A stretch of 64,000 nt of DNA, taken from NCBI RefSeq assembly GCF_040274945.1, contig NZ_JBEMAR010000003.1, positions 88,994 to 152,993 on the forward strand. The letters are read 5' to 3'. This document shows positions 3,614-40,127 of the stretch, piece after piece (within the stretch, counting starts at the first letter, position 1; every line of letters begins with the position of its first letter). Under the pieces are notes generated by a model, which was given only the letters and a program-made list of their open reading frames with translations, was not told the DNA's origin and ran no database searches. A program made the position numbers and the translations under genes. This DNA comes from Carnobacterium sp. Lineage in GTDB: Bacteria > Bacillota > Bacilli > Lactobacillales > Carnobacteriaceae.

Positions 3614-3856
3614 AAGCTTTCCTTTCTTTTATTTAGTTTTTTTTAATATAACATACTTTCAATAACACTAAAATCAAGTTTATCAGTATCTTATTTTCTA
3701 TAAAGCCAGAATCTAAGTATAGCTTTACTTAGAATCATGTCATTCTGACCTTTTAATGTTTAAAATAAAGTTTCAACAGTTCTTTAGCACTGATGGTTGA
3801 GGTATAATAAATTAAAGAATTGTTCCTCAAAAACATACCTACGGAGGGTCTTTAAT

Positions 3857-4696
3857 ATGAGACAAAATGACGAAGAAACGCTCAATGATTTATATAATTT
3901 GATCCTCAATCCTGCTACTCGGGACTGGGAACGGTCATCATTATTGTCGACCAAAAACGCCTTAGAAGAAGGTGGAAGTATTGGCGACCAATTTTCAAAG
4001 CTTGAAGCTAAATTACGTCCACTCGCATTAAGAAACAACTTAACGCCTGATGTGACGGATTTTTATAACAGTATAACTGGAAATGCTAGCTCCAACGCTC
4101 AATTTGATTTTGCGAAACATTCCATTGATGATCTGACTTACCAAGATTCTGCGGTATTTGCAGGCGGCTGTTTCTGGTGTATGGTAGAACCTTTTGAAAC
4201 CCGAAATGGAATCATTTCAGTCTTATCGGGTTACACCGGAGGGCATATGAACCATCCCACTTACGACCAAGTGAGTGGCCAGTATACAGGGCATGTCGAA
4301 GCGGTTGAGATTATTTTTGATACACGGATCATACAGTATAAAGACTTGGTGGAGCTTTATTGGCAGCTGACTGATCCCACTGATGCGTTTGGACAATTTC
4401 AAGACCGAGGCAGTCAGTACCGCCCGATTATTTTTGTTCGAAATGAAGAACAACGGAAAATTACTGAAAAGTCAAAACAGCGATTAATAGAATCCGGCAA
4501 ATACAAGCGTCCAATCGTTACATTAATTGAGCCAACATCTGTATTTTGGCCGGCAGAAAACTTCCACCAGCAATTTTATAAGAAAAATCGAAAAAGATAC
4601 AAAAGGATTGAGCGGTCCCGTCAACAATTTTTAGCATTCCAACATTTGCAAGGTAAAATCCGGACAGAGCTTAATCATTTTACACGAAAACATTAA
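3857..4696 (+). CDS. msrA: Peptide methionine sulfoxide reductase MsrA with an N-terminal extra helical domain
   Basis: [29 protein letters not shown]. Start moved to ATG 3857 (GGAGG at 3843-3847). About 95 extra N-terminal residues. Confidence 0.9.
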
Positions 4697-4878: not shown

Positions 4879-5472
4879 GTGTTGGAAACAATTTTAAGTT
4901 TATACGTTACATTAATGTCAGTGATTTTTGCAGGTGTTGCCAATATGGTATTTTGTAAATACCCTACTTATCAATGTTTAAATATCCCAATGGATGCCGG
5001 TAGGATATTAGCAGACGGCAAGCGATTGTTTGGTCAAAACAAAACTTGGAAAGGCTTTATTGGCATGATTCTTTTTGGCGGACTCTCTCAAATGATCTGG
5101 GGACTCATTCTAAAAACTAGCCCTTCTCTTGAATCGCTGAATCTCTTCTATGACGTCTATGCAAATTCTATCCTAAACAATCTTTGGATTGGTTTTTTAT
5201 TAGGGTTAGCTTATGTCGTTTTTGAATTGCCCAATAGTTTTATGAAACGACGGCTAGAAATAAAACCTGGTAAACCAGCAAACAATCAATGGAAATGGTT
5301 CTTTATTTTTATTGATCAAGCAGATTCATTGCTAGGTTGTGCTCTAGTTGTAGCCGTTTTGGTTCCAATAAGTTTGGCTCAATTTTTCGAGTTTATCCTT
5401 TTGGGAGCTGGTACTCATGTCGTAGTCAATCAATTATTGTATTGGTTTAAATTAAGAAAAAATCCATTCTAA
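4879..5472 (+). CDS. CDP-archaeol synthase (CarS/DUF46)-like membrane cytidylyltransferase
   Basis: PMDAGRILADGKRLFGQNKTWKG, PNSFMKRRLEIKPG and IDQADS match CarS-like motifs; multiple TM segments. Confidence 0.75.
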   Translation: MLETILSLYVTLMSVIFAGVANMVFCKYPTYQCLNIPMDAGRILADGKRLFGQNKTWKGFIGMILFGGLSQMIWGLILKTSPSLESLNLFYDVYANSILNNLWIGFLLGLAYVVFELPNSFMKRRLEIKPGKPANNQWKWFFIFIDQADSLLGCALVVAVLVPISLAQFFEFILLGAGTHVVVNQLLYWFKLRKNPF

Positions 5473-5504
5473 TTATTTTAGATGTACAAAGAGGTGTATA
5501 GAAA

Positions 5505-8027
5505 ATTTATTGGACTTTAATAGAAACTGCAGAAACAAATCTGCGGTATGGCGGTAAAATAAACGCGTTGATCAATTTGTCTCAGTTAGGCCTTCAGGTA
5601 CCTAAAGGCTATTTCATTTCAGAAGATAAACTCACTTCACTATGGACTGAAGCAATCCCAGAACTAGTAGGATTAGAAACAACCGTTCATCCTAATCTGC
5701 CAACTTATGAAACGATTGTTCAACGCTTGGATCAGCTGAGTTTCCCAGCGGAATTAAATGCAGAAATAAGTGATCTGATATCTCTTAATAAAACCTATAT
5801 TGTGCGAAGCAGTGGCTTGATGGAAGACCAAGCATCTACTTCTTTTGCTGGACAATACGACACAATTGCAAACTGCACGACGACTGACGACATTATTGCT
5901 GCATTAAAACAATGTATCGCGTCTCTTTTTAAGCCAGCTGCCATAACTTATTGGCAGACGCATCAGTTGGACGTTCAAAATCTAAGAATGTCTGTCATTA
6001 TTCAAGAACAAGTTTCAGCAGTGTCCAGTGGTATTTCGTTTACTCTCAATCCTTTGACAAATAATGATCGTCAATTAACCCTTGAAGTAGTGAAGGGCGC
6101 AGGTGAACAGCTTGTTAGTGGATTGGTTACTCCTGAACAATTAACGATTGATTGGTTTTCAACAATCGGACCAACAAATTGCTCAAAAATTTTATCTTCA
6201 GGTCAGTTAAAGCAGCTTCAAGAACAGTTGCTTTTGATTGCGACCTTTTATGGCTATCCTGTCGATGTGGAATTTTGTTTCAGCAAAGATTCCTTATTCT
6301 TCTTACAAGCTCGCCCGATCACAACGATTCGCCGAAAAATCAATGAAGGCAATTGGACAACAACGAATTTTCGTGATGGCGGTGTCGCTGCGCAGCCTTG
6401 TCCAGGATTGATGTGGAGTTTATACCGCGAATCATGGCAGACTACGTTAGAAAAATTCTTGATTCAAAACAAGTTATACGATTCAACAAACATCAACCAG
6501 CTATCTATCAATCATTTTGCAAGACCTTATTGGAATATTGGGGTTGTAAAAGAAGCCATGTCACGGATACCTGGCTATATTGAACGCGAATTTGATGACG
6601 AGCTTGGCGTGTATAAAAATTATCAAGGAGATGGCTATAAAAGCAAGCTGACAGTTAAGACGCTCAGCCATTTACTAACTGTGGCGACTCGTATCACTAA
6701 AACGACTCAGCAACAGCGTCAAACAGCAGCACAGCAACACAAACAACTATTAGAAACGTATCAATCAATCGATAAAAAAATCCAATCGCTATCTTCCGCG
6801 ACAGATCAGCATAAAATTGAAGCGTTATGGGAAACTATCATTAACGATGCTTATTTGCAAAGTGAACAGACTTATTTCTGGCAAGTCTATGTCAATACGG
6901 TGCAGCTTTCAATGAAAAAAACCGCCTTATTGAAAAAATTGCCTTTAGATACTTTTTTTCAGCTTATCTCAAAATTAGGTGCAGTCTCACATATCCAACC
7001 GCTACGTGATCTGTATGAGATCGTTGATATTATCTTGGCAAACGATAAATTCAAGCAGGAATGGATGACAAACAGTCCAGTAGACATCAATACGCTGCTA
7101 ACCAAACAACCCCATCGTCTAGATGCGCAGCGGATTAAAGCTTTTCAAGCAATATTTGGCTATCATTCAAATCGTGAATTGAATTTATTGGTGCCAAGTT
7201 ATAGCGAAGACCAGCAGCTAGTTGTTGATCTGTTGAAAGACTATGTGGATCATCCAGAGAAACTCAAGGCAGCTCAACACTCCTTCTCACAAATACAGAC
7301 AGAAGAACAAATGGGAAAACTAATTGAACCCTATGTCTCTAAATGGCAACGTACTAAAGTAATGAAGGATATCAAGATGCTGCGTGACTTATTATGGTGG
7401 CGTGAAGAATTTAAAGATGTATCAACTCGTTTTTATCATTTGATTCGTCAAATCACTTTGAAATTAGGCGAAAGGTATTCCCAACTAGGGTATATTGATC
7501 AAACAGAAGACCTCTTCTATCTTGAAAAAGAAACGATACACTCTTTTATTACTAACCAACTTTCTCAAGAAAGTCTTCAAAAATCCGTACAAGACAATCG
7601 TATGTATTGTCAGGCTTATCGCCACTTTGTTCCTCCAGGAGATTTAATGGAGACAAGTATTTCCCCAGAGATGGAAAATCTTTTGGTAGATACTCCATCC
7701 AGTTTATCTGGAATCGGTGCTAACGATGGAATTGTTTCTGGAAAAGTAAGAATCCTGCTAGACCCTAAAGACATCCATCAGTTGCAAGCTGGCGAAATCT
7801 TGGTGACTCGTTTTACAGATACAGGTTGGAGTCACGCTTTTGGTTCCATTGAGGGTCTGATTACAGAAACTGGCGGTGTTTTATGCCATGCCTCAATTGT
7901 TGCCAGAGAATTCGGGATTCCAACGATCGTCTGTGCAACACACGCTACTGAAAACTTAAAAACAGGTATGACCGTTACAATGAATGGAACCACGGGTGAC
8001 ATTACAATTCAAAAAGGTGGATGCTAA
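5505..8027 (+). CDS. PEP-synthase/rifampin-phosphotransferase-like dikinase A (ATP-grasp, central domain, C-terminal phospho-His domain)
   Basis: YGGK..L..L...G..VP, VRSSGLMED..STSFAGQY, DVEF, LQARPIT, and C-terminal TDTGW and GGVLCHASIVAREFGIP. The reading frame is open from 5502. The ORF track starts at TTG 5568; the probable start is ATT 5505. Confidence 0.85.
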   Translation: MYWTLIETAETNLRYGGKINALINLSQLGLQVPKGYFISEDKLTSLWTEAIPELVGLETTVHPNLPTYETIVQRLDQLSFPAELNAEISDLISLNKTYIVRSSGLMEDQASTSFAGQYDTIANCTTTDDIIAALKQCIASLFKPAAITYWQTHQLDVQNLRMSVIIQEQVSAVSSGISFTLNPLTNNDRQLTLEVVKGAGEQLVSGLVTPEQLTIDWFSTIGPTNCSKILSSGQLKQLQEQLLLIATFYGYPVDVEFCFSKDSLFFLQARPITTIRRKINEGNWTTTNFRDGGVAAQPCPGLMWSLYRESWQTTLEKFLIQNKLYDSTNINQLSINHFARPYWNIGVVKEAMSRIPGYIEREFDDELGVYKNYQGDGYKSKLTVKTLSHLLTVATRITKTTQQQRQTAAQQHKQLLETYQSIDKKIQSLSSATDQHKIEALWETIINDAYLQSEQTYFWQVYVNTVQLSMKKTALLKKLPLDTFFQLISKLGAVSHIQPLRDLYEIVDIILANDKFKQEWMTNSPVDINTLLTKQPHRLDAQRIKAFQAIFGYHSNRELNLLVPSYSEDQQLVVDLLKDYVDHPEKLKAAQHSFSQIQTEEQMGKLIEPYVSKWQRTKVMKDIKMLRDLLWWREEFKDVSTRFYHLIRQITLKLGERYSQLGYIDQTEDLFYLEKETIHSFITNQLSQESLQKSVQDNRMYCQAYRHFVPPGDLMETSISPEMENLLVDTPSSLSGIGANDGIVSGKVRILLDPKDIHQLQAGEILVTRFTDTGWSHAFGSIEGLITETGGVLCHASIVAREFGIPTIVCATHATENLKTGMTVTMNGTTGDITIQKGGC

Positions 8028-8638
8028 AAATGTTTATTGGAGAATATGGAAAATTTATCTATTTAACTTACTTTGGGACAGCCCTGTCGTTAGTAGCGAT
8101 GCATTTTATCATTCAAGGTGAAATGATCTGGGCGATGAGCTGCTTTATTGTGAGCGGACTTTGTGATTTATTTGATGGCATGGTTGCGCGTTCTTTTGAA
8201 AGAACAAAAGCGCAAGAACAATTTGGTGTGGAGATCGATACCCTTTGCGATATGATCAGTTTTGCGGCATTGCCCGCAGTTTTATTGATCGCACAAGGCC
8301 GGTTTCCTTTAATGAACATTTTTTTAGCTATTATTTATGTCATCACTGCGGTTACAAGACTGGCTTATTTCAATCGTGAAACGAAAGAAAATTTAGCAGA
8401 AAGAGCTACTTATTTCCGGGGAGTTCCGGTTACCTATGGTGCACTTGTTTTTCCGGTCGGTTACTTGGTAAGTGAAGGATTTTCAAGTGGCAGTTTTCAA
8501 TCTGTTCTTCTACTGCTTGCTCCTATAATGGCTTTTCTATTCATCTGGGACATTAAGATTCCTAAACCCAATCGTGTAATGTACCTCTTTTTCCTAGGAC
8601 TAGCGCTTGTAACGTTGTTCGGATTATGGAGATTGTAG
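8021..8638 (+). CDS. CDP-alcohol phosphatidyltransferase (PssA-like)
   Basis: Signature CDLFDGMVAR...FGVEIDTLCD and RLAYFN...FRGVP. Confidence 0.85.
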   Translation: MLKMFIGEYGKFIYLTYFGTALSLVAMHFIIQGEMIWAMSCFIVSGLCDLFDGMVARSFERTKAQEQFGVEIDTLCDMISFAALPAVLLIAQGRFPLMNIFLAIIYVITAVTRLAYFNRETKENLAERATYFRGVPVTYGALVFPVGYLVSEGFSSGSFQSVLLLLAPIMAFLFIWDIKIPKPNRVMYLFFLGLALVTLFGLWRL

Positions 8639-8639
8639 T

Positions 8640-9506
8640 ATGCCAAAAGTCTATCAACGTGAAACGAAATCGATTACTGAACCTAAGGAATATCAAGCAG
8701 CATGGTTAAAACGATTGTATTTAACAAAGTGGGGAAACATTTTGCTTTTCGTAGTCACTTCCCCATTCTTTTCCATCGTATGGACGGCTATTGACCATAC
8801 CCGATTTTCTAAAAATAAAGTTGCTCGGTTCACCAAAGAGTACGGTATCAACATAAACGATTACGAATCTGCAAACTATAGATCTTTTGCAGCATTCTTT
8901 ATCCGCAAATTAAAAGCGGCAAACATTCAAGTAAGTCCGTCTTATCGCGTTTGCGCTGTTGCGCAAGCGAAACTATTAGTCGTCCCCATTCAGAGTGATC
9001 AGACCTTTGCCATCAAAGGGCAGAATTATCGTTTAGAAGACATTCTTCAAGACCGTTCTTCAGCTGATTATTACGAAGGCGGAACCTTATTTATTTATCG
9101 CTTAGCGGTCGATGATTATCATCGTTATTTATCAAGTGAAACAGGCACGGTTATTCATCGACGTAAAATCCGCGGAAAACTGCATACGGTCAGAGAAATC
9201 GCGCAACAACACTTTCAATTATTCAAAGAAAATAAAAGAGAGTATTGTCTAATCGAAACAAAGAAATTGGGAACGATCATGCAGATGGAAGTCGGAGCAC
9301 TTTTGGTTGGCAAGATTTATAATCAACCATTCAATAATTATCAGCGAGGGAAAGAAAAAGGTTGGTTTAGCCTGGGAGGTTCAACCATACTAGTAGCTTA
9401 TCCAAAAGACAAGATAAATGTTGATCCAGATATTCACCATTATTCTAGTCTAAATATAGAAACACAAGTCAACATAGGGGAAGGAATTGGTCTGAAAACA
9501 TGTTAA
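8640..9506 (+). CDS. psd: Phosphatidylserine decarboxylase proenzyme family
   Basis: FFIRKLK, RLAVDDYHRY, EVGALLVGKI, RGKEKGWFSLGGST (self-cleavage GST). Confidence 0.85.
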   Translation: MPKVYQRETKSITEPKEYQAAWLKRLYLTKWGNILLFVVTSPFFSIVWTAIDHTRFSKNKVARFTKEYGININDYESANYRSFAAFFIRKLKAANIQVSPSYRVCAVAQAKLLVVPIQSDQTFAIKGQNYRLEDILQDRSSADYYEGGTLFIYRLAVDDYHRYLSSETGTVIHRRKIRGKLHTVREIAQQHFQLFKENKREYCLIETKKLGTIMQMEVGALLVGKIYNQPFNNYQRGKEKGWFSLGGSTILVAYPKDKINVDPDIHHYSSLNIETQVNIGEGIGLKTC

Positions 9507-10405
9507 CCAGATTATTAACTTATTATAAAGAGATGTACCCACTGATTCCGCGATTACTATTAGCGATCATCTACTTTTTTGAAATCTACTTTATCTTACT
9601 CCTCAACGTAGGAAAGTCAGATTTTTCAATAGGAATACAAGAATGGACCGGAGTTTGGACAATATTTACTTTTTTGATGGCACTTAGGATCGCAGATGAT
9701 TTTAAAGACTACGAACACGATCAACGACTATTTCCAGATCGGGCATTGCCTTCTGGGAGAGTTAAGAAACGTGATTTAGCTATTGCTTTAGCTGTCATGG
9801 TCACGATCACTGTTGTGCTCAATGTCTTCTTTATGAATAATATAGGCTGGTTTCTCTTTTTATTCATTTATGGAACCTTGATGTCGCTGTGGTTTTTCAG
9901 CAAAGTCAAAATTCAAAAATCATTGCCTTTAGCACTGGTTACCCATAATCCTGTGATGATGGTCATGAATATCTATATCATCACATTCGTTTGTTACAAA
10001 TATCAATTGCCATTGCTGTCATTACCTACTGTCCTGCTGGCATTTACGATGTATTTCCCAAGCTTGATATGGGAAATCAGCCGTAAAATAAGAGCACCCA
10101 AAGACGAGACAGAATATGTGACTTATTCTCAACTCTTCACTTATCAAAAAGCCACACGTTTCGTTCAAGTGCTGACAATCATTGATATTTTAACGAATTT
10201 TATTCTTCTTTGGAATATTTCAAAAATCGGTGTTGTTGTTCTATTGGCAAATGTCATCTGGATGACGATTCAATTTCAACAGTTCATTCATGATCCGACT
10301 CGTTTCAGTATCAAAGATCGAGTGGAACGCTATACCTATATTACAGAAACAACGATGGTTCTTTCGGTTGCAGCTCATCTATTTATCCAGGGGTTTGTCC
10401 GATGA
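9500..10405 (+). CDS. UbiA-prenyltransferase-like membrane protein
   Basis: Asp-rich RIADDFKDYEHD...PDRALPSG motif and about 8 TM segments. Confidence 0.75.
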   Translation: MLTRLLTYYKEMYPLIPRLLLAIIYFFEIYFILLLNVGKSDFSIGIQEWTGVWTIFTFLMALRIADDFKDYEHDQRLFPDRALPSGRVKKRDLAIALAVMVTITVVLNVFFMNNIGWFLFLFIYGTLMSLWFFSKVKIQKSLPLALVTHNPVMMVMNIYIITFVCYKYQLPLLSLPTVLLAFTMYFPSLIWEISRKIRAPKDETEYVTYSQLFTYQKATRFVQVLTIIDILTNFILLWNISKIGVVVLLANVIWMTIQFQQFIHDPTRFSIKDRVERYTYITETTMVLSVAAHLFIQGFVR

Positions 10406-12903
10406 AACAACTCACTCACTTAAGTCGTCATTTAGTAGGTTCAAAAGCGTATAATTTACATCTAATGAAAAAGCAGGGTCTCGTTGTTCCTCCTTTTTCA
10501 GTTTTTTCGTTTGATCTCTTTGATCAAACAGATGTACATACCTTCTTGAAGGAACAACAAGCAGCAGATCAAACAGGAAACGATACATTGAATAAATTGA
10601 GTCAACGATTGCAGCAGGAGTTTAAGGCGAAATTTTTGCAAGAGGATTTTTCAGCTATCCATGAATTTAGCAGGAACGCTTCTGACAACCATACTTACTC
10701 TGTACGCTCTTCAGCAAACGTTGAAGATGAGGCCTCTGCCTCATTCGCAGGACAATTCTCTACGCGTTTGTTTGTTGAAGCGAACGATTTAGTTGAAGCT
10801 GTAGAAGAAACTCTTTTGTCGTTGTATCAGCCCTCTGCACTGAGTTACTACTTGGAACAGGGCATTTCGTTAGAAGCTGTTAAATTATACGTCATTCTCC
10901 AAGATATGATTGCGGGAGATCTATCTGGGGTCTATTTTACTGCAAATCCTCAAGGGTTGTTGAACGAACACTTAATTGTTGTCGGCTTTGGCGTTGGCAG
11001 CGGCATTGTGGAAGATAAAGTGGATACAACGATGGTTACGATCCATTCGGATGATCAATTGTCTTACTTTGAAACATCTGGTGCGTCTCCAACCTTAACA
11101 GAGAAACAACAAGTAGATTTAGAAGCCATGGCGAAAAAAGCCACCGATATTTTTGGTCCGCGAATGGATATCGAATTTACATTTTTAGATGACCAACTCT
11201 ATGTTTTACAAGCAAGACCTATCACAAAAATGCCTACAGAACCGGTCATTATTTTAGACAACAGCAATATTGTGGAGAGTTATCCCGGAACAACGACTCC
11301 TTTGACTTTTAGTTTTATTCAAGAAGCCTATGGGAGTATTTTTAGAGGTCTGGCCAAACGCATGCTGAAAAATGATACACAGACACTTCAATCATTTGAG
11401 CCCACTTTTCAAAATATGATCGCTCAAGTCAATAGCCGGGTCTATTATCAAATCACTAATTGGTACAAATTACTTCATCTTCTGCCCTTTTCTAAGCAGA
11501 TCATCCCTATTTGGCAAGATATGTTAGGTGTTCAAGCCACCGATATCTCTGCAATTACAGTAAAAATCAGTCGCTCAACTCGACTGAAAATCATGGGACG
11601 CATCATTAAGAGTTTCATCCAAGCGCCTCGTTCAATGAAACAACTCGATTCGGATTTTGAAGCGATTTCTGAACATTTCAATCAAACGTATACGCGAGAG
11701 GCTTCATTTGAAGAACTTCATCAATTATTTGAGCAGATCAAACGACAAGTATTGGAACAATGGGATGTCACTTTGATCAATGATCTCTATGCGTTTGTTT
11801 ATACTGGGCTGTTAAAAAAAGTCTGTCCGCCTGAAGAAGTTCAAGAGGAAATAGCCGGGATCGAACAAATTGAAAGTATGAAGCCAGTGTTTGAACTTAA
11901 TAAAATCATTTATACCATTCAGGAAGAACAACATAGCGACTATCGAAAAATAATTGAAAGCATTTCTTCGGAACTTGCAGCTGATTTTATTGAGACAGAT
12001 TTGCATCCAATCACACAAGATATCCGACGTTTCATTCAACAATTTGGAGATCGAGCTCCAGAAGAATTAAAATTAGAGACGGCAACCTTTCGTAGTCATC
12101 CTTTTTCATTAATTCAACTGATCCAACAGCAATTGGAATTGCCGCAAACAGCGATGCGTACCGAATCTAAAGCAACGGCAACAAACAAATCACGGAATCC
12201 ATTGGTGAATGGGCTGAAGAAACGCGCTATGACAGGGATCAAATACAGAGAAAGTTCTCGCTTGAATCGTACGCGAATTTACGGAATGATGCGACTCATC
12301 TTTATCACTATGGGCGAGCAGTTGGTAAAAGAAAACCGTCTTGAGCAATCAGAGGATGTGTTTTATTTAACGATGACTGAACTTTTCGATTTGGCTAGCC
12401 ATAGAGATCTTTCAAATATGCAAACAGAGATACAAAAACGGAAGCATAAACGATTAGTAGATCAGCAATTACCTGCATTCAGCCGGTTGATCTATGCTGG
12501 AAGTATTTTCGAAAAATATCCACAAACGATCAATCAGCAGCAGACAGTCTCGACCAACCAGCAGGACTTCCAAGGAATCGGTTGTTCAAAAGGCATAGTT
12601 CGAGGGCAAGTTTTAGTTGTCGAAGATATTCAAGCCGTTAATGTTCAGCAATCCTATAATAAAATTATCGTCACAAAAATGACGGATCCAGGATGGGTGT
12701 ATTTACTGACCCAAGCAAAAGGGATCATTGCGGAAAAAGGCTCGTTATTATCTCATACAGCAATCATCTCTCGCGAATTAGGTATTCCTTCTGTCGTCAA
12801 TGTCCAACAAGCCACACAACAACTAACGACTGGAGAATGGATTGAAATAAACGGACAGACCGGCCTGATCAAACGTTTGGAGGATGAAAATGATTACTCA
12901 TAA
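10402..12903 (+). CDS. PEP-synthase/rifampin-phosphotransferase-like dikinase B
   Basis: VGSKAYNL, VRSSANVED..SASFAGQF, DIEF, LQARPIT, NIVESYPG, TDPGW, GSLLSHTAIISRELGIP. Confidence 0.85.
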   Translation: MKQLTHLSRHLVGSKAYNLHLMKKQGLVVPPFSVFSFDLFDQTDVHTFLKEQQAADQTGNDTLNKLSQRLQQEFKAKFLQEDFSAIHEFSRNASDNHTYSVRSSANVEDEASASFAGQFSTRLFVEANDLVEAVEETLLSLYQPSALSYYLEQGISLEAVKLYVILQDMIAGDLSGVYFTANPQGLLNEHLIVVGFGVGSGIVEDKVDTTMVTIHSDDQLSYFETSGASPTLTEKQQVDLEAMAKKATDIFGPRMDIEFTFLDDQLYVLQARPITKMPTEPVIILDNSNIVESYPGTTTPLTFSFIQEAYGSIFRGLAKRMLKNDTQTLQSFEPTFQNMIAQVNSRVYYQITNWYKLLHLLPFSKQIIPIWQDMLGVQATDISAITVKISRSTRLKIMGRIIKSFIQAPRSMKQLDSDFEAISEHFNQTYTREASFEELHQLFEQIKRQVLEQWDVTLINDLYAFVYTGLLKKVCPPEEVQEEIAGIEQIESMKPVFELNKIIYTIQEEQHSDYRKIIESISSELAADFIETDLHPITQDIRRFIQQFGDRAPEELKLETATFRSHPFSLIQLIQQQLELPQTAMRTESKATATNKSRNPLVNGLKKRAMTGIKYRESSRLNRTRIYGMMRLIFITMGEQLVKENRLEQSEDVFYLTMTELFDLASHRDLSNMQTEIQKRKHKRLVDQQLPAFSRLIYAGSIFEKYPQTINQQQTVSTNQQDFQGIGCSKGIVRGQVLVVEDIQAVNVQQSYNKIIVTKMTDPGWVYLLTQAKGIIAEKGSLLSHTAIISRELGIPSVVNVQQATQQLTTGEWIEINGQTGLIKRLEDENDYS

Positions 12904-13975
12904 TTCTTTAAAAATCATTCCAGTGTTTTCAGGTGAAAAATCAGAAACCGATTTCCTGCAATTCCCACAACGAATTTATAAAAAAGAGGAATTGATGCAA
13001 TCCGTCTCAGAGGAACAAGCACAGATCAGTGGACAGCATCCGTTGAGTCCAACCTATACTTTCCAAGCATTCAATGGTTACCAAGAGGGTCAAATGGTAA
13101 TTCGCGGGGCTCTAATAAAACCGCATCACTTGGAAGACTATTACTTAGGGTATTTTGAAGCAGTAGATGATGTAACCGTCATGATTCAGTTTATCCAAAC
13201 ACTGAGTGAAAAAGTACGAGACAAAAATGTGCAGCGCATCATTGGTCCTGTTCAAGGAAGTTTCTGGCTAGGCTATCGAATGAAAGTTAAAGGATTTGAA
13301 CGAGCACCATTTACGAGTGAACCGCACAATCCATCGTATTATCCGAAGTTATGGCAAGCGGCCGGTTTTAAAGAGGTCGAACACTACACGTCAAATTTTT
13401 ATCGTTCGATTCCACCTCAATATGAATCAAAAAAACTAGCCAAACGTTATCATTTATTTGTGGAAAAAGGTTATCGTTTTGTTTCTCCTAAACCAGAAGA
13501 TTGGCCAACCGTTTCGCTTGAAGTCTTTAAACTTTTAAGAGTACTCTACAAAGACTTTCCATTGTATCAAGAGGTTACAGCTGAACAATTCAGTCAAATT
13601 TTTGCCGATTTAAAACAAGTGATCGATTTTTCTATGGTGAAGTTGGCCTATAAAGATCAGCAGCTCGTTGGCTTTTTGATTACTTTGCCGGATTATGGCA
13701 ATTTGATTTATCAAAAAATGAATCTACTAAATCTAGCGAAAATTATCTATAAAAAATGGCGTGCTAAACGTTATATCATTCTGTATTTAGGTGTAGACTC
13801 TAAGCATCTGGGTTTGGGATTGGCGATGTCCTATCCGGTTTTCAAACAGGTAAAACAACGCAAAGCAGAAGTAGTTGCTGCATTGATCCATGAAAATACG
13901 GTAACAAACCGATATGTGACAGAGATGCAGGAAGATTCTCATGCTTACAGCTTATGGATGCTGGAATTAAAGTAA
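12890..13975 (+). CDS. GNAT-fold (YghO-like) protein
   Basis: IIGP, PFTSEPHNPSYYPKLWQAAGF, YLGVDSKHLGLG (motif A-like). Start at ATG 12890 with GGAGG 6 nt upstream. Confidence 0.6.
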   Translation: MITHNSLKIIPVFSGEKSETDFLQFPQRIYKKEELMQSVSEEQAQISGQHPLSPTYTFQAFNGYQEGQMVIRGALIKPHHLEDYYLGYFEAVDDVTVMIQFIQTLSEKVRDKNVQRIIGPVQGSFWLGYRMKVKGFERAPFTSEPHNPSYYPKLWQAAGFKEVEHYTSNFYRSIPPQYESKKLAKRYHLFVEKGYRFVSPKPEDWPTVSLEVFKLLRVLYKDFPLYQEVTAEQFSQIFADLKQVIDFSMVKLAYKDQQLVGFLITLPDYGNLIYQKMNLLNLAKIIYKKWRAKRYIILYLGVDSKHLGLGLAMSYPVFKQVKQRKAEVVAALIHENTVTNRYVTEMQEDSHAYSLWMLELK

Positions 13976-14044: not shown

Positions 14045-14077
14045 AAAGACCCCAAAAGCTAAGCTTTTGGGGTCTTT
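14045..14077. terminator. Bidirectional terminator ending the lipid operon
   Basis: AAAGACCCCAAAAGC-TAA-GCTTTTGGGGTCTTT. Confidence 0.85.
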
Positions 14078-29802: not shown

Positions 29803-31074
29803 TTATTTTGTAAACTGGATGGCTTTTTCTCCGATATCAAAACGATAGAACGTATGCGCTATCGGATTATTCGTTAAGTAGTGGTAAGCCTTGTCTTGGG
29901 CTTCTTGTAACGTTGAACCTTGTGCTGCAACAAATAAAATACGCCCTCCATCAGAAATAAGACTGCTTTTCTCTTTCTTCATACCCGCAGTATAAATGGT
30001 ACAACCTAAATCTGCGGTAGTCATCTGTGGTAACGGAATATCTTTTATCGTATTTTCTGGGTAACCTTCAGCTGCAACAACAACACCTAGTGTATAGCGG
30101 TCCGTGTGCATTTTAATAACTGGATCTTTTTCATTTAAGATATCATCAATCACTTGTGCCAAATCAGAATCTAGCTGGTTCAAAATAACTTGGGTTTCGG
30201 GATCACCAAAACGAGCATTAAATTCGATGACCCTCAGACCATTTTTTGTCATCATCAATCCAGCGTAAATGACCCCTTTGAAAGGACGTGATTCAGCAAC
30301 CATTGCATTCACAGTTGGTTTTATGACCGTCTCCAAAACTTCTTGAATCACCGATTCAGAAACTTGCGGTACTGGAGAATAAGCGCCCATACCACCTGTA
30401 TTCGGTCCTTTATCCCCATCATAGGCCCGTTTATGATCTTGGGCAACGCCGGCATAATAATAGTTCGATCCATTTACAAGCGCAAATAAAGAAAATTCTT
30501 CACCCTCGAGGTATTCTTCAATAACGACTTTGGGTTTGCCGGCTGCGTACTTCCCTTTCACTAACATATCACTTAAAGCATTTGTTGCTTCTTTCAGAGT
30601 CATCGCAACGACTACCCCTTTTCCAGCTGCTAAACCATCTGCTTTAATGACAATGGGTACGCCTTGGTTTTCCACATATGCTAAAGCGGCATTATGATCT
30701 TCAAATATTTCATACGTTGCGGTTGGAATAGCATATTTTTCCATCAATTCTTTTGCAAATTGTTTTGAACATTCTAAGTCTGCTGCTTTTTTGCTTGGTC
30801 CAAAAACCTTTAATCCAGCACTATCGAAATCATCTACTAATCCTTCAAACAGAGCTATTTCCGGTCCAATAAACGTCCAAGTAATTTTTTCTGATTTCAC
30901 AAAATGAATCAACGCTTGATGATCATTTTCTGCAATATCAACCAATTGGATGCCATCATTTTCCATCCCAATATTTCCTTTAGCACAATATACAGCTTCT
31001 ACTAATGAGCTTTCTTTGAATTTTTTTGCGATGGCATGCTCACGGCCACCACTGCCGATAACAAGAAGTTTCAT
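29803..31074 (-). CDS. purD: Phosphoribosylamine-glycine ligase
   Basis: GSGGREHA, KADGLAAGKGV, GPNTGGMGAYSP, EFNARFGDPETQ. Confidence 0.98.
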   Translation of the reverse strand: MKLLVIGSGGREHAIAKKFKESSLVEAVYCAKGNIGMENDGIQLVDIAENDHQALIHFVKSEKITWTFIGPEIALFEGLVDDFDSAGLKVFGPSKKAADLECSKQFAKELMEKYAIPTATYEIFEDHNAALAYVENQGVPIVIKADGLAAGKGVVVAMTLKEATNALSDMLVKGKYAAGKPKVVIEEYLEGEEFSLFALVNGSNYYYAGVAQDHKRAYDGDKGPNTGGMGAYSPVPQVSESVIQEVLETVIKPTVNAMVAESRPFKGVIYAGLMMTKNGLRVIEFNARFGDPETQVILNQLDSDLAQVIDDILNEKDPVIKMHTDRYTLGVVVAAEGYPENTIKDIPLPQMTTADLGCTIYTAGMKKEKSSLISDGGRILFVAAQGSTLQEAQDKAYHYLTNNPIAHTFYRFDIGEKAIQFTK

Positions 31075-31176
31075 CTACGAAATCCTCCAATTTTTTTTAT
31101 TGAATTAGGATATGTTTGAAAGCTAATAACTATTCTGATTTTTGGGCTAGCTGAGAAAGATAGGATAACTACAGTA

Positions 31177-31273
31177 AATATTGACTTTCAGTTAATCAAA
31201 CTAGCGCTTGTTGTAGCTACTCAAATGAATATCAACTTTTAGTTAATCGAACTAGCGCTCGTTGCAGCTACTC
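31177..31273. repeat. Tandem 46-nt direct repeat (period 51) in the purH-purD spacer
   Basis: 31177-31222 versus 31228-31273; 40 of 46 positions identical. Confidence 0.85.
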
Positions 31274-31365
31274 GCTGCTTAATAAGATAGTTTTAAAACA
31301 CTCCCTAGTTAGTTTTTGCTGTATTTTGGATTTGTTCAGTACTGTGTTGCATTCTAGTCTATTTC

Positions 31366-32907
31366 TTAATGTCTAAAATGACGTACACCAGTTTTCAGCA
31401 TGGTCATTCCGTATTTATTTGCCATTTCAATAGACTCTTTGTCTTTAATGCTTCCTCCTGGTTGAATGATTGCTTTGATGCCATGTTTTGCGGCATATTC
31501 CACACTATCGTTCATAGGAAAGAAAGCATCACTAGCCAGTACAGCACCTTCTATAGCGTTACTCGCTTTAGCCTGCTCAATTGCGATCTTAACAGCTCCG
31601 ATTCGGTTCATTTGACCGGCCCCAATTCCCACGGTCTGTTTGCTAGTTGCCAGCACGATAGCATTGCTCTTTACATGCTTAACTATTCTCCATGCAAAAT
31701 CCATAGCTTTCATTTCGTCTTCGGTCGGTTTACGGTCCGTCAGTACTTCCCAATTTACCACTGTATCTTCAGTACTCATATCTTGTGTTTGTTCCAATAT
31801 ACCACCCAATACAGAAACAACTTCTTTGCCGCCTACTTTTGCAGTTGAGAAATCCAAAGTCATGATACGGATATTTTTTTTCTTCGATAGCGTATCTAAC
31901 GCTTCTTTTGTATAACTTGGCGCAAGAACGATTTCTAAGAACATACTGTTCAGTTTTTCTGCTGTCACATTATCCAATTGGCGGTTGGCAACTACGATTC
32001 CTCCAAAGATTGAGACTGGATCCGCTGCGTAACAGCGATCAAAAGCCTCTTCAATCGTTTCAGCAATGCCCACTCCACATGGGTTCATATGTTTGACAGC
32101 AACCACTGCCGGTTCATCAAATTCACGTATGATACGAATAGCAGCGTCTGCGTCTTTAATGTTATTGTACGATAATTCTTTTCCATGTAATTGACGAGCA
32201 TTTGCAATCGAGAATGGGACAACAAGCGACTCTTGATAGAAAGTAGCGACTTGATGTCCATTTTCACCATAGCGTAGTTTTTGTTTCAAATCATAGGTCA
32301 ACGTTAATTTTTCAGGTTCTTCTTCACCAACACTAGTGGTCAAATATTGCGCAATCAAGGCATCATAACTTGCGGTGTGACGAAAGACTTTTGCAGCTAA
32401 AGCTTGACGTGTTTTAATCGTTGTTGCTCCTTTTTCTTCCAGCTCATCGAGGACTTTACTATAATCAGCTGGATCCGTTAAAACGGTCACACTTGCATAA
32501 TTCTTAGCCGCACTACGCAACATACTAGGGCCGCCAATATCAATATTTTCAATGGCTTCTTCTAAAGTAACATCCTTTTTGCTGATCGTTTCTTTAAATG
32601 GGTAAAGGTTTACCACCACAAAATCAATCGGTATGATGTTGTGTTTTTCCATTGCCGACATGTGTTCAGGTAGATCACGTCTCCCCAATAAACCACCATG
32701 AATAAGTGGATGCAAGGTTTTGACACGACCATCCATCATTTCTGGAAATCCAGTCACGTCTTCGACAGAAACGGTCGGGACACCTGCATCTTCTAATGCC
32801 TTTTTGGTTCCACCAGTTGAAATAATTTCGATGCCTTTTGCCACTAATGCTTGTGCGAATGGTACAATACCTGCCTTATCTGAAACGCTAATCAATGCTC
32901 TTGTCAC
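31366..32907 (-). CDS. purH: Bifunctional AICAR transformylase/IMP cyclohydrolase
   Basis: [38 protein letters not shown]. Confidence 0.98.
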
Positions 32908-32927
32908 TCTACGCCACTCCTCAATTT

Positions 32928-33512
32928 TTATTCACTCTTTTTAATGGTTTTATTTTCAATCACTTTTTGAATGACCTGCGGAAAAAGACGGTGCTCTACT
33001 TGATGTATTCTGGTCTCCAGAGAGTCTAGTGTATCTTCAGGTAAAATAGCCACCTTCTCTTGTGCGATAATGGGTCCAGTGTCTACCCCTGCATCAACAA
33101 CGTGCACCGTCACACCAGTTTCCTTTTCGTTTGCTTCAAATGCGTCTTGAATGCTGCTTTTACCAGGATAATATGGCAATAAAGAAGGATGGATATTCAA
33201 GATACGATTTGCATACGCCGTTAGCAATGTCGGCCCAATAATTCTCATGTATCCTGCCAATACAATTAAATCCACCGCGTTTAGTTCAAGCTGTTTCAAT
33301 AGTTCTGACTCATAGGCTGCTCGATTCTCATAGTTTTTCGGACTGAAGACTGTAAAAGGGATACCCATTTTTTTTGCACGCTCTATGACAGAGGCTTTCG
33401 GATTGTCGCAAAACAGGAAGCAAAGGGTTGCATCGACTTGTTTGGAGGCGATTGCCTCTGCTATCGCTTGGAAATTAGAACCATTTCCTGAAGCAAATAC
33501 AGCTATTCTCAT
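32928..33512 (-). CDS. purN: GAR transformylase
   Basis: [33 protein letters not shown]. Confidence 0.98.
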
Positions 33513-34558
33513 AGTTGCTTCTCTTTCAAAATGACCTTTTCCTCTGATTCCTTTGAAATTACCGAACCAATCACATAGCCTTTTTCGTTGTTCTCTAAAA
33601 GAACGGCCAATACTTCAGGTACTTTTTCAGGAGCAACAGAAAGAACCATGCCGATTCCCATGTTGAATATTTCATACATGTCACCTTCTGGTATTTTACC
33701 GATTGTTTGCATCGTTTGAAAAATTGGCAACACTGGCCAGCTCCCTAACTGAATGTGAGCTTGTACGTTTTCAGGAAGCATCCGTGGAATATTTTCAACA
33801 AATCCGCCCCCTGTGATATGTGCAGCACTATGAAGCAACTGTTTTTTTATCAGTGGCAGTAAAGCATTAACGTAAATTTTTGTTGGCGTCAATAAAACAT
33901 CGCCCAACTCTTGATCACCTAATTCTGGTATTTTATCCATTAATGTATACGCATGATCTTTAAAGAAAATTTTTCGTACTAACGAATAACCATTTGAATG
34001 GATTCCCGTTGAAGGTAACCCAATCAACATGTCCCCTTCTTTGACTAACGTAGCAGACAATAAAGCATCTTTTTCAGCAATACCAACCGTAAATCCAGCC
34101 AAATCAAAATCTTCCGGATCATACATATCCGGCATTTCAGCTGTTTCACCGCCAATTAAAGCCGCTCCTGATTGGACACACCCTTCTGCCACACCAGCTA
34201 CAATTTGCTCGATTTCTTCAGGATGGTTTTTCCCGACCGCAATGTAATCTAAGAAATAAAGGGGTTCTGCTCCTTGTGCCACAACATCATTGACACACAT
34301 CGCGACACAATCGATTCCAATTGTGTCCCATTTTCCAGATTCAATGGCCAACAGTAGTTTTGTACCAACGCCATCTGTCCCAGATATAAGAATGGGCTTT
34401 TTATAGTTGAGTTCACCAAGATCAAAATGACCGCCGAATCCACCGATTTCACCAAAAACACCCGGCCGTTTGGTACGTTTGACATGTTTTTTGATGCGTT
34501 CGACTGCTTCATAACCCGCTGTGACATCGACACCCGCTTTCGCATAGGCATTTCCCAT
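33509..34558 (-). CDS. purM: AIR synthetase
   Basis: [32 protein letters not shown]. Confidence 0.98.
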
Positions 34559-34560
34559 TA

Positions 34561-36015
34561 TTACCCTCCCCTAAGATTTTCTTTTTGAATTTCGGTCATA
34601 TTCTTTAGGTAGTCCTCTTCGTAGTCATACAGTCCTGCTGGATAATCCCCATTAAAACTGTCCATGCATAAACCTGAGTAAGGACTATCAAATTTCAATC
34701 CAATTGAATCAATTAAGCCTTCTTGGCTGAGAAATGACAAACTGTCTGCTCCGATAGACTCACACATTTCAGGAACTGTCATTCTTGCAGCAATCAGTTC
34801 AGCAGATTTGCTAATGTCGATTCCGTAAAAACTTGGATACATCAAGGGAGGAGAAGCGATGCGAACATGGACCTCTTTCGCTCCGGCTTCTTTCAATAAT
34901 GTGACAATTCGTTTACTTGTTGTACCTCGGACGATCGAGTCATCTACCATGACAACAATTTTCCCTTGCACGACTCCTTTTACGGCAGATAACTTCATTT
35001 TCGCACCCAATTCGCGCAGTTCTTGTGTCGGTTGGATAAATGTGCGACCTACATATTGATTCTTAATCAGACCCATTTCATAGGGGATTCCACTCTCTTC
35101 AGCAAAACCGCTAGCTGCGGATAATGACGAGTTAGGAACACCAATAACGATATCCGCATTCACCATAGGGGATTCTAGTGCCAACCGTTTTCCCATTCTT
35201 TTGCGAGCCGTATGTACATTCACACCGGCTATGTTTGAATCTGGTCGAGCAAAATAGATATATTCCATTGCCGCAATGGAAATACTGGTATCCTCTGTGT
35301 ATTTTTCAATCGTTAGGCCATTGCGATCAATAATTGCCAACTCTCCAGCGTTAACATTACGGACAAACTCTGCACCAATGGTATCTATCGCACATGTTTC
35401 ACTTGCCATCACATAGGCACCATTTGGCAATCGTCCAATCACGAGTGGGCGTAAAGAGTTCGCATCAACAGCACCGAACATTTTTTCCTCCGTCATAAGA
35501 ACATAAGTAAACCCACCTTTAACAAGGTTCAGACTTTCCTTTATTTTATTGATCAACGTGTCTTTCTGACTACGTCTAATGAGATGGATTAACACTTCCG
35601 TATCTGATGTCGAATGAAAGATCGCTCCATCTTCTTCCAGATTACGTCGCAAGCTCTTGGCATTCACCAAGTTTCCATTGTGACAGATAGCGATATCTAA
35701 ATCGTAGAAATGGTACAAGAAAGGCTGTACGTTTTCGATGCTATTCTGTCCAGATGTGGAATAGCGTACGTGTCCGATAGCACGATCTCCTGACAATCGT
35801 TTAAGATCGTCTCCATTTTTGAAGACTTCACTAATCAACCCCAGATTGCGATGAACCAATAGTTTCCCATTATCACAAGAAACGATTCCAGCACCTTCTT
35901 GTCCGCGATGCTGCAAACTATGCAATCCAAAATAAGTCAGTTGGCTAGCACTTGGATCACCCCAAATGCCAAACACCCCACACTCTTCATTTAAGCTTTT
36001 TGTTTCAGCAAACAT
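34561..36015 (-). CDS. purF: Amidophosphoribosyltransferase
   Basis: [24 protein letters not shown]. Start at ATG 36015 is likely. Confidence 0.98.
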
Positions 36016-38222: not shown

Positions 38223-38899
38223 TGGCACAGCTCCTTCTGATAATTTTTATACATAGACTGGAATAATTTTAATCCATCATCTGAACCCAGTAATGCTTCA
38301 ACAGCTCGTTCAGGATGAGGCATCATACCCAATACATTTCCTTGCTTATTGATAATGCCCGCTATATTTTCGATGCTTCCGTTTGGATTATCATTCGCAT
38401 ACGTAAAAACAATTTGATTGTTGTCCTTCAATTGCTGTAACGTTTCTTTATCACAATAGTAATTCCCCTCACCGTGTGCGACAGGTACAGTAATGATTTC
38501 TCCATGTCCGTAGCCTGATGTAAATGATGTATGTACGTTTTCTACTTTTAGATTTTGCTGCTTAGAGATGAATTTCAGTGATTCATTGCGCCGTAATGCT
38601 CCCGGTAATAAACCCGCTTCTGTCAAAATTTGAAATCCATTACACGCTCCAAAAACAGGTTTTCCCTCTTCAGCAAATCGAATCACTTCAGCCATAATAG
38701 TGGAAAATCGGGCAATAGACCCCGTACGTAAGTAATCGCCGTAAGAGAATCCTCCTGGGAGTAATACTGCATCGAACCCTTGCAAGCTGTTTTCATAGTG
38801 CTGAACATATTCCGCGTCTTCCCCAAGACTATCTTTTACAGCTGTATACATGTCTAAGTCGCAATTGGATCCAGGAAAAACAATGATGGCAAATTTCAT
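38219..38899 (-). CDS. purQ: FGAM synthase glutaminase subunit
   Basis: [32 protein letters not shown]. Confidence 0.98.
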
Positions 38900-39150
38900 T
38901 ACATTCCAACCTCCTGAATATCATACCGGTATGTTTCCATTACTACATTTGCTAAAAGTTTGTCACAGATTTCTTCAATTACGTGCTCGATATCCTTTTC
39001 ATCTTTAGAAACTTGGATTTCAAAATATTTTCCAATACGAATATTTTCGATTGACTCATATCCCATGCGATGAACCGCACCCTTGACTGCTTCCCCTTGC
39101 GGATCTAGAACGGAGTCTTTATAAGTGACATAAACGGTTACCTTATACAC
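38899..39150 (-). CDS. purS: FGAM synthase subunit PurS
   Basis: [21 protein letters not shown]. Confidence 0.97.
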
Positions 39151-39236
39151 GATTGAAACGCCTCACTTTTCTCTTTTGATTTATAGTGGTTGATTTTTCA
39201 TTAGTCTGTATCTAGATGAAAGGATAATTCGTTTAT

Positions 39237-39947: not shown

Positions 39948-39962
39948 TATCTCTTCCTTTCT

Positions 39963-40034: not shown

Positions 40035-40091
40035 TGGAATATCCACTATTTTTTCAAATGATAAACGAACGAAACCTATCTTATTTCATCG

Positions 40092-40122: not shown

Positions 40123-40127
40123 CTAGG

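Follow-up and report, generated by a model that had tools for sequence, protein, structure and literature searches.

Closest described systems

The back half of archaeal phospholipid synthesis is carried out by four enzyme families: digeranylgeranylglyceryl phosphate (DGGGP) synthase, CarS, archaetidylserine synthase, and a decarboxylase. Here, we describe an operon encoding members of the same four families in a bacterium, Carnobacterium sp. It comprises seven genes (Table 1) in a 64,000-nucleotide stretch of contig NZ_JBEMAR010000003.1 (positions 88,994 to 152,993), which we call the window and from whose first letter all positions are counted. Unlike the archaeal system, the operon adds two dikinases with a swivelling His domain (DikA and DikB) and a protein with a predicted tandem GNAT fold, and it occurs in bacteria whose lipids are otherwise of the diacyl type. 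The four archaeal-type proteins all score below the NCBIfam equivalog cutoffs of their archaeal or bacterial namesakes. Hence, they are relatives, not orthologues. Our best reading is that the operon is one branch of a widespread family of lipid clusters, whose core is a UbiA prenyltransferase resembling DGGGP synthase, a DikB-type dikinase, and a tandem GNAT, usually accompanied by a decarboxylase homologue. We tentatively favour, with slightly less than even confidence, a function in making an isoprenoid-bearing lipid by activation, serylation, decarboxylation, and probably acylation.

Several other known systems resemble parts of the operon. The dikinases share ATP-grasp, central, and swivelling His domains, and an intact His motif, with rifampin phosphotransferase (RPH), the PigC/RedH ligases, and the Bacillus subtilis flavonoid phosphate synthetase, but they score only about 208-256 bits on RPH, PigC, and RedH models whose cutoffs are 999-1350. 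In B. subtilis, PcrB and YvoF belong to a route in which heptaprenylglyceryl phosphate is made, dephosphorylated, and acetylated, a precedent in Firmicutes for archaeal-type prenyl-glycerol ether lipids that are later acylated. That route uses a TIM-barrel homologue of geranylgeranylglyceryl phosphate (GGGP) synthase and a hexapeptide acetyltransferase, where the operon has a UbiA enzyme and a tandem GNAT, and it involves neither activation by cytidine diphosphate (CDP) nor a head group. Phytol salvage in plants and cyanobacteria is formed by the phytol kinase VTE5, the phytyl-phosphate kinase VTE6, and the UbiA-type enzymes VTE2/ChlG. The likeness lies in two successive phosphorylations feeding a UbiA-family prenyltransferase, with the difference that the second kinase would here be a His-swivel dikinase, not a VTE6-type enzyme, and the first, by analogy, DikA. 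We found no characterisation of such an operon in the literature, and the cluster is absent from the lipocone paper and from that of Coleman et al. Each protein comes from a known superfamily, and none scores above the equivalog threshold of an enzyme that has been characterised; the combination of genes appears to have no described counterpart in the literature found. In databases, the proteins go by names that are unspecific or mistaken ('phosphoenolpyruvate synthase', 'prenyltransferase', 'hypothetical protein').

An original prediction, made from the letters of the window, had named the seven families as they are now recognised by Pfam and NCBIfam scans and, for the GNAT, by a structure model. 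It had also likened the operon to the archaeal back half, a resemblance found again in the best solved matches (CarS and DGGGP synthase), in the scores of the transferase on archaetidylserine and phosphatidylserine (PS) synthase models, and in the GGST motif of the decarboxylase. Its statement that the window lacks a GGGP synthase and a glycerol-1-phosphate (G1P) dehydrogenase agrees with our scan, where the Pfam families of these enzymes (PcrB for the former) match none of the 46 open reading frames (ORFs) scanned out of the 50 of at least 150 aa.

Table 1. Genes of the lipid operon and the hairpin that follows it (window positions)
Feature	Position	Strand	Evidence
CarS-like cytidylyltransferase, 197 aa, multi-pass membrane	4879..5472	+	PF01864
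Dikinase A (DikA), 840 aa from the probable start ATT 5505	5505..8027 (ORF list: TTG 5568)	+	PPDK_N, PEP-utilizers
CDP-alcohol phosphatidyltransferase, serine-type, 205 aa	8021..8638	+	PF01066
Pyruvoyl-type phosphatidylserine-decarboxylase homologue, 288 aa	8640..9506	+	PF02666
UbiA-superfamily prenyltransferase, own subfamily, 301 aa	9500..10405	+	NF010118, fold
Dikinase B (DikB), 833 aa	10402..12903	+	NF004882, PPDK_N, PEP-utilizers
Tandem GNAT-fold acyltransferase (predicted), 363 aa	12884..13975	+	predicted fold
Intrinsic-terminator hairpin, between convergent genes	14045..14077	.	15-bp perfect stem, 3-nt loop

UbiA-like protein, dikinases, and tandem GNAT

The UbiA-like protein is the most conserved protein of the cluster, with 63-95% identity over the 80 loci (59 in Lactobacillales, 21 in others) that were obtained by scanning representative genomes with it. 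It reaches 497 bits on NF010118 (cutoff 443), for only 25.5 bits on the Pfam family UbiA (PF01040, gathering threshold 34.2) and 16 bits on the DGGGP synthase equivalog NF009521 (cutoff 296). The first Asp-rich motif, DDFKDYEHD (DxxxDxxxD), is present in 80/80 orthologues. Among PDB sequences the sole match is a weak one to the DGGGP synthase of M. jannaschii (E 0.011). The AlphaFold model is all-helical, with a predicted local distance difference test (pLDDT) of 81, and its best Foldseek matches are the DGGGP synthase structures 6m31 and 7bpu, with a template modelling (TM) score of 0.66-0.70 at 15-17% identity. Other UbiA structures reach a TM of at most ~0.62, the A. pernix UbiA homologues 4od4/4od5 coming next with 0.52-0.58, and all matches with probability of at least 0.99 belong to the UbiA superfamily. 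We conclude that the protein forms a UbiA subfamily of its own, of which DGGGP synthase is only the nearest solved structure and not an orthologue.

Both dikinases consist of a PPDK_N ATP-grasp domain (3.6e-48 in DikA, 2.8e-41 in DikB), a long central region, and a mobile swivelling His domain (PEP-utilizers, 1.6e-21 and 2.2e-22). They are colinear paralogues with 27% identity. DikB scores 999 bits on NF004882 (cutoff 850), a curated family of its own, and DikA reaches no NCBIfam cutoff. The catalytic motif of DikA, LCHASIVARE, is kept in 52 of 54 orthologues and the His motif of DikB in 74 of 75. Their closest solved relatives are the Listeria RPH structures 5hv1/5fbs (~1e-40). However, they score 208-249 bits on RPH equivalogs with a cutoff of 999, and we therefore rejected their identification as rifampin kinases. 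We also rejected the database name 'phosphoenolpyruvate synthase', since the Pfam scan matched neither protein to any family of pyruvate- or phosphoenolpyruvate-binding barrels. The dikinases score alike on the models of the PigC/RedH ligases and of RPH. Because their genes sit in a lipid operon, their substrate is probably a lipid alcohol or a prenyl phosphate, and not a precursor of an antibiotic or pigment.

The listed start of DikA probably needs correction. A YGGKIN motif conserved in its orthologues falls, in the window, upstream of the first TTG, ATG, or GTG (region 5473-5570). Orthologues of other genera start with ATG or GTG 13-14 residues before this motif, and the equivalent position in Carnobacterium and Desemzia holds ATT or ATC (ATT in a Carnobacterium metagenome-assembled genome (MAG), ATC in Desemzia), after a GGAGG-type site. 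Judging from this alignment, DikA most likely starts at the non-canonical ATT 5505, not at the listed TTG 5568. A -1 frameshift was rejected as an alternative account, since the candidate slippery site is not conserved in another locus (L001).

The seventh protein has no match in Pfam or NCBIfam, and a GNAT-family profile search against PDB sequences returned nothing significant. Its AlphaFold model is confident (pLDDT 90.6), and the best Foldseek matches are tandem GNATs (2wpw, 5kf1, and MshD 1ozp; E 1e-13 to 1e-8, probability 1.0, TM 0.55-0.66). By name, the fold matches include a clavulanate tandem GNAT, a glucosamine N-acetyltransferase, and mycothiol synthase. The protein, which had been called GNAT-like from its sequence, is thus predicted by this model to fold as a tandem GNAT. 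In its C-terminal half, the residues K-H-L-G-L-G lie between strand 4 (296-304) and helix 3 (311-325), with G310 and L311 invariant; this K-x-x-G-x-G loop occupies the position that binds the pyrophosphate of coenzyme A (CoA) in GNATs, whose membership motif is Q/R-x-x-G-x-G/A. The enzyme is probably acyl-CoA dependent.

A putative head-group arm

The CarS-like protein scores 68 bits on PF01864 (gathering threshold 22, E=1.3e-18) and 75 bits on the archaeal CarS equivalog NF003114, whose cutoff of 148 is not reached. The closest solved relative among PDB sequences is A. pernix CarS (5guf, E=8.5e-5), and the motifs NKTxxG, SFxKR, and DQxD are retained in 64-69 of the 69 orthologues. By these sequence criteria, it is a bacterial sister subfamily of archaeal CarS. 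As such, it would convert an isoprenoid-bearing phosphatidate analogue and cytidine triphosphate (CTP) into a CDP-lipid. Purified archaeal CarS favours isoprenoid phosphatidates whereas bacterial CdsA favours diacyl ones, and CarS has two lipid-binding grooves, fit for two chains (PMC9385802). Considering this preference, the presence of a dedicated CarS-type enzyme beside the housekeeping CdsA indicates an isoprenoid substrate.

The transferase matches PF01066 with 52.9 bits (gathering threshold 22) and keeps the motif DGxxAR...GxxxDxxxD (D-G-x2-A-R-x(n)-G-x3-D-x3-D) in 66 of 69 orthologues. Its four top NCBIfam matches are all of the serine type (79, 70.8, 62.6, and 42 bits, each below its cutoff), the two best being archaetidylserine synthase (79 bits) and PssA (70.8 bits), and models of other head-group types give at most 31 bits. 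That serine is the acceptor is also supported by the adjoining decarboxylase gene. The enzyme is therefore named serine-type here, and its sequence suggests that it would turn the CDP-lipid and L-serine into lipid-phosphoserine and cytidine monophosphate. The decarboxylase would then change the serine head group into an ethanolamine one. It matches PF02666 with 140.8 bits (5.7e-41), scores 220 bits on NF001941 without reaching the cutoff of 371, and its GGST motif of pyruvoyl self-processing is found in 68 of 70 orthologues.

A serine transferase and a decarboxylase are the standard pair for making phosphatidylethanolamine (PE), and the operon could accordingly be read as ordinary PS and PE synthesis from phosphatidic acid beside functionally unrelated genes. 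We find this hardly credible. The genes from DikA through GNAT are translationally coupled, all seven are co-inherited as a block into differing genomic contexts, the cytidylyltransferase is of the CarS and not of the CdsA type, and in distant lineages, too, the core turns up together with a decarboxylase (see below).

Conservation in Lactobacillales and variants in Clostridia

The UbiA-like protein of the window is 95% identical to that of a Carnobacterium MAG and 93% to that of a Desemzia isolate. Gene order is the same for all seven genes in 55 of the 59 Lactobacillales loci, and the remaining four (L020, L023, L032, and L037) reach the end of a contig. These loci belong to six genera: Carnobacterium, Desemzia, Candidatus Enterococcus, Streptococcus (the species sanguinis, cristatus, gordonii, sinensis, moroccensis, and panodentis), Abiotrophia, and Fundicoccus. 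When flanks are compared, genera have nothing in common beyond the seven genes, and the compared loci show no additional conserved neighbour of the cluster. Since the flanks differ between genera, the operon is a self-contained unit that has moved between genomes. A neighbourhood search had been put forward in the original prediction as the check on whether the genes belong together, and this synteny with unshared flanks bears out that they do. Catalytic and signature motifs are kept in nearly all orthologues.

In three Streptococcus loci (L015, L034, and L048) the tblastn matches cover only part of DikA, DikB, or GNAT, which could reflect frameshifts, masked stretches, or pseudogenisation.

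The 21 other loci are variants of the cluster. They come mostly from Lachnospiraceae and Oscillospiraceae/Ruminococcaceae MAGs, several stem from Clostridia or bacteria that are not classified further, and one bears the label Muribaculum. Partner proteins of Lactobacillales and Clostridia share 32-41% identity, for 42-52% in the CarS-like proteins. DikA is found in none of the 21. The fullest form, in most variant loci with CarS, is DgkA-CarS-transferase-decarboxylase-UbiA-DikB-acyl-CoA ligase-GNAT. L065 and L075 have this order without the ligase, i.e. DgkA-CarS-transferase-decarboxylase-UbiA-DikB-GNAT, which is the gene set of the window with DgkA replacing DikA. L071 and L073 have no head-group genes (DgkA-CarS-UbiA-DikB-ligase-GNAT), and seven loci (L062-64, 66, 72, 74, and 76) have only the core, UbiA-DikB-ligase-GNAT. 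Apart from the core-only loci and L071 and L073, 11 variant loci add the serine transferase, and 10 of these 11 also the decarboxylase. DgkA, confirmed by PF01219, strictly tracks CarS in the variants: the two are both present, and adjacent, or both absent. No locus has the transferase or the decarboxylase without CarS. These nested architectures fit a linear order with the core first, then activation, then the head group.

The Clostridial ligase scores best on the models of MenE (o-succinylbenzoate-CoA ligase) and FadD (fatty-acid-CoA ligase). We rejected the idea that DikA substitutes for this ligase, since L065 and L075 lack both genes and yet have DgkA.

Distant sister clusters

The UbiA subfamily reaches far outside Firmicutes: among 1.8 billion cluster representatives searched, 486 match it at E <=1e-10, and names of the sources place some of them in Alphaproteobacteria and Nitrospiraceae MAGs. 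The earlier expectation that similar clusters exist in other Firmicutes was thus right about their existence and too narrow in its limits, as sister clusters with a BtaA-like head-group enzyme occur in other lineages. We studied the contexts of relatives with 28-35% identity to the UbiA-like protein (L081-L091). There, UbiA, a dikinase of 860-890 aa, and a 375-aa protein recur, in most cases together with a PS-decarboxylase homologue. Over its full length, the 375-aa protein is homologous to the GNAT of the window (hhalign probability 99.8%, E 3e-28), and full-length homology also holds for the decarboxylase (28% identity between the window protein and that of L081, E 4e-33). Complete distant dikinases are of the DikB type, with 314-392 bits against DikB and 120-189 bits against DikA.

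This roughly twofold difference in score identifies DikB as the ancient partner. In addition, UbiA is followed directly by DikB in almost every one of the 80 loci whose contig extends far enough, with a 3.4-kb insertion between them in L064. Hence, DikB is the ancestral partner of UbiA and of the tandem GNAT, and DikA is a late paralogue specific to Lactobacillales. The view of the two as equivalent 'twin' dikinases has to be abandoned.

Some of the distant UbiA proteins are fusions of 550-590 aa, in which an N-terminal domain of ~250 aa precedes the UbiA domain (P0243, P0275, and P0302; L081 8001-9659; L083 9001-10422). The N-terminal domain has no match in Pfam or NCBIfam. The Joint Genome Institute (JGI) names these proteins 'dolichol kinase' or 'dolichol kinase/4-hydroxybenzoate polyprenyltransferase'; from these names and from its motifs, we take the domain to be dolichol-kinase-like. 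The possibility that it is the same domain as the CarS-like protein was rejected, as hhalign finds no relation. In L081, L083-L085, L087, L088, and L091, a dolichol-kinase-like kinase forms one protein with UbiA or has its gene directly upstream, and a DAGK_cat kinase lies at UbiA in L086. A lipid-kinase slot is thus filled by four unrelated families: DikA, DgkA, dolichol-kinase-like proteins, and DAGK_cat. Because one slot is held by four unrelated families, DikA is suggested to phosphorylate a lipid alcohol. Such non-orthologous displacement, as read from the sequences, is the best available evidence for this activity and supports it indirectly. Of the original proposal that the dikinases phosphorylate a lipophilic alcohol in replacement of the archaeal front half, the part on DikA gains indirect support from its exchange with DgkA, dolichol-kinase-like, and DAGK_cat kinases elsewhere, and the two dikinases are not equivalent.

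CarS and the CDP-alcohol transferase are absent from L081-L091. Instead, L081, L085-L088, and L091 carry a BtaA-family (DUF3419) enzyme. BtaA, which matches DUF3419, is an S-adenosylmethionine (SAM):diacylglycerol 3-amino-3-carboxypropyl transferase (PMC6642084). Like CarS with the serine transferase, it puts an alpha-amino-acid head group on a lipid; the window itself has no BtaA-like gene. We conclude that the BtaA-like enzyme takes the slot of CarS and serine transferase, the common theme being lipid to lipid-amino acid to lipid-amine. The sister clusters differ from the betaine-lipid pathway in that they lack the BtaB methyltransferase and have a PS-decarboxylase homologue in its place, which implies a decarboxylated (aminopropyl) head group and not diacylglyceryltrimethylhomoserine (DGTS).

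An Exo_endo_phos gene (phosphatase/phospholipase C-type) lies just downstream of the GNAT gene in L087 (11305-12393), with a fragment in L082 (3843-4202). It could provide the dephosphorylated lipid alcohol that BtaA needs.

Other recurrent genes of the distant clusters encode an MMPL exporter (L081, L083-L085, L087-L089) and 3-hydroxy-3-methylglutaryl (HMG)-CoA reductase (L081, L083-L085, L087, L088). The gene families bear on another explanation, in which the cluster makes a small-molecule natural product: the GNAT would join an activated carboxylic acid to an amine, UbiA would prenylate the product, the dikinases would phosphorylate or condense like PigC or a flavonoid kinase, and the lipid genes would supply an ethanolamine unit. 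The equal scores of the dikinases on PigC/RedH and RPH models and the MenE and FadD affinities of the Clostridial ligase speak for such a route. However, it is very unlikely, since CarS, transferase, decarboxylase, DgkA, BtaA-like enzyme, DAGK_cat, dolichol-kinase-like kinase, and MMPL are membrane-lipid families, and no carrier protein, thioesterase, or other tailoring gene is conserved.

The exporters and kinases also raise the possibility of a polyprenyl-phosphate carrier, where a polyprenol (e.g. undecaprenol) would be phosphorylated by DgkA or DikA, CDP-activated, serylated, decarboxylated, and exported, to give phosphoethanolamine or a related group to envelope polymers. The DgkA of Gram-positive bacteria is an undecaprenol kinase, which accords with this scheme, as do the dolichol-kinase-like partner and the adjacent MMPL exporters of the distant clusters (L081, L083, L085, L087, and L089 for the latter). 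The preference of CarS for isoprenoid lipids points in the same direction, but its two lipid grooves suit two chains (PMC9385802), and BtaA is known solely on diacylglycerol-type acceptors (PMC6642084). As the scheme also leaves the most conserved genes, UbiA, DikB, and GNAT, without a role, and no conserved cluster transferase could pass the head group to a polymer, we think it quite unlikely.

In L081, L083, L086, and L089, the GNAT gene lies next to the decarboxylase gene. This adjacency would be expected if an ordinary diacyl amino-lipid, made via the transferase or the BtaA-like enzyme and the decarboxylase, had its amine or head group decorated, with the GNAT acylating it, UbiA prenylating it, and the kinases merely salvaging prenol to prenyl diphosphate. 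Core-only loci are found in Lachnospiraceae, which make their own PE, and two kinases feeding UbiA, one of them dolichol-kinase-like and fused to it or directly upstream, follow the logic of plant phytol salvage. Decoration leaves unexplained the dedicated CarS-type enzyme beside the housekeeping CdsA, as well as L071 and L073, where DgkA-CarS comes without transferase and decarboxylase. Moreover, the closest structure, DGGGP synthase, prenylates a glycerol hydroxyl, and we know of no precedent for N- or head-group prenylation by a UbiA enzyme. We therefore regard this explanation as unlikely.

Proposed pathway

In the pathway that we favour, the lipid would carry an isoprenoid chain because the clusters combine a DGGGP synthase-like prenyltransferase, a polyprenol-kinase-like partner, HMG-CoA reductase, and a CarS-type enzyme. 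The UbiA-like protein would use a prenyl diphosphate to form an ether with a glycerol-based acceptor; since DGGGP synthase acts on GGGP, the most economical acceptor would, in analogy, be lysophosphatidate. The kinases can be placed in two ways, which match the data about equally well. In the first, DikA, DgkA, or the dolichol-kinase-like kinase would convert a prenol to prenyl phosphate and DikB would convert this to prenyl diphosphate, the donor for UbiA. This explains the kinase::UbiA fusions and the constant adjacency of UbiA and DikB, and mirrors plant phytol salvage. In the second, DikA or DgkA would phosphorylate a diradylglycerol-type alcohol for CarS, as suggested by the strict adjacency of DgkA and CarS in Clostridia, and the role of DikB is left over. 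After activation, serylation, and decarboxylation, the tandem GNAT would acylate the new amine with acetyl-CoA or another acyl-CoA, a step to which Clostridia would devote an extra acyl-CoA ligase. Such N-acylation of the decarboxylation product fits the abutting GNAT and decarboxylase genes of the sister clusters and the ligase gene ahead of GNAT in Clostridia. We propose that the product is an N-acyl, isoprenoid-containing PE analogue, with substrates, order of steps, and product all inferred; any specific structure deserves much less confidence than the overall reading.

Several points weigh against this pathway. The acceptor of UbiA is a guess, as analogues of GGGP synthase and G1P dehydrogenase are absent. 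For DikB, no role more specific than phosphorylating or activating an oxygen can be proposed. The dolichol-kinase::UbiA fusions suggest that the variable kinase serves UbiA and not CarS, which makes the kinase assignments ambiguous. The fold matches of the GNAT also include FemX, MprF, and Sbb17, and in light of this model the enzyme could O-acylate or use an aminoacyl-tRNA donor. Flanking genes are common to the seven core-only loci, which probably go back to one lineage, so that the argument from nesting counts few independent events. A lipidomics study including S. sanguinis ATCC 10556, a strain name found in the title of the cluster-bearing locus L007, detected PE only at very low levels across its panel of oral microbes, although it was not designed for such lipids (PMC11052126). 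Finally, no RNA-seq run holding the window sequence was found, only metagenomic DNA runs, one of which, from bovine gut, contains all sampled words of the window.

Taken across lineages, the clusters would correspond to a new bacterial class of isoprenoid (archaeal-like) amino-lipids, with the head group installed via CDP and serine in Firmicutes or by a BtaA-like SAM-dependent enzyme in other lineages, then decarboxylated and N-acylated; this is a serious possibility, on which we lean to the doubtful side. The conserved trio of UbiA, DikB, and GNAT has a substantial chance of defining a new lipid class. If the favoured pathway is true, archaeal-type enzymes produce a hybrid lipid in common commensals and opportunists, which bears directly on the 'lipid divide'. 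The hosts concerned include S. sanguinis, S. gordonii, S. cristatus, Abiotrophia, many gut Lachnospiraceae/Oscillospiraceae, and dairy and gut Carnobacteriaceae, and the oral and gut microbiome would gain a membrane or signalling lipid so far unknown. In oral streptococci and Abiotrophia, the product could then be an ethanolamine phospholipid with an ether linkage and a short acyl chain, potentially able to signal to the host. A His-swivel dikinase would here act in membrane-lipid synthesis for the first time, and the large 'PEP synthase-like' family would gain its first role in lipid metabolism. The modular sister clusters provide a natural experiment, with CarS and serine transferase set against a BtaA-like enzyme, and four unrelated kinase families in one slot.

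Operon layout and genomic surroundings

The seven ORFs are all on the same strand, and from DikA onward each overlaps or abuts the next: by 7 nt at DikA/transferase (8021/8027), with a 1-nt gap at transferase/decarboxylase (8638/8640), by 7 nt at decarboxylase/UbiA-like (9500/9506), by 4 nt at UbiA-like/DikB (10402/10405), and by 20 nt at DikB/GNAT (12884/12903), or 14 nt if the GNAT starts at ATG 12890. These coordinates agree with the co-oriented, overlapping or abutting arrangement claimed in the original prediction. An AAGAGG ribosome-binding site lies 8 nt ahead of the GTG start of the CarS-like gene. The GC content of the cluster (0.37-0.40) is similar to that of its flanks.

The strong terminator that had been placed at the end of the operon is also found: the hairpin is stable (-23.9 kcal/mol, z = -5.1, with 0/200 shuffles equally stable) and is a terminator common to the operon and to the convergent minus-strand gene, whose direction its T-run fits better. 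A simple terminator scan did not list this hairpin. A simple promoter scan gave nothing exceeding chance, and an Rfam scan of the whole window gave no riboswitch or other RNA element.

The flanks of the window are unrelated to the operon; they encode a nucleoid protein, a DNA glycosylase, MsrA, reductases, and a LysR regulator. In the ORF just upstream, at 3797-4696 (+), residues 26-93 form an enterocin-A-immunity domain and residues 119-269 a methionine sulfoxide reductase A domain, and there is no evident terminator between this ORF and the operon. About 40 kb away, at 54490-56747 (-), are genes for an LCP (LytR-CpsA-Psr) ligase and a BacA/UppP undecaprenyl-diphosphate phosphatase, for which no link to the operon is shown. 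The window also holds, at 29803-41757 (-), a complete purine biosynthesis operon, whose scanned ORFs match the Pfam families of purE, K, C, Q, L, F, M, N, H, and D. At 42013-46201, a NADH:flavin oxidoreductase with FMN_bind, a protein with FMN_bind and PAS, and an ApbE flavin transferase form a group resembling the extracellular or flavin-based electron-transfer modules of Gram-positive bacteria.

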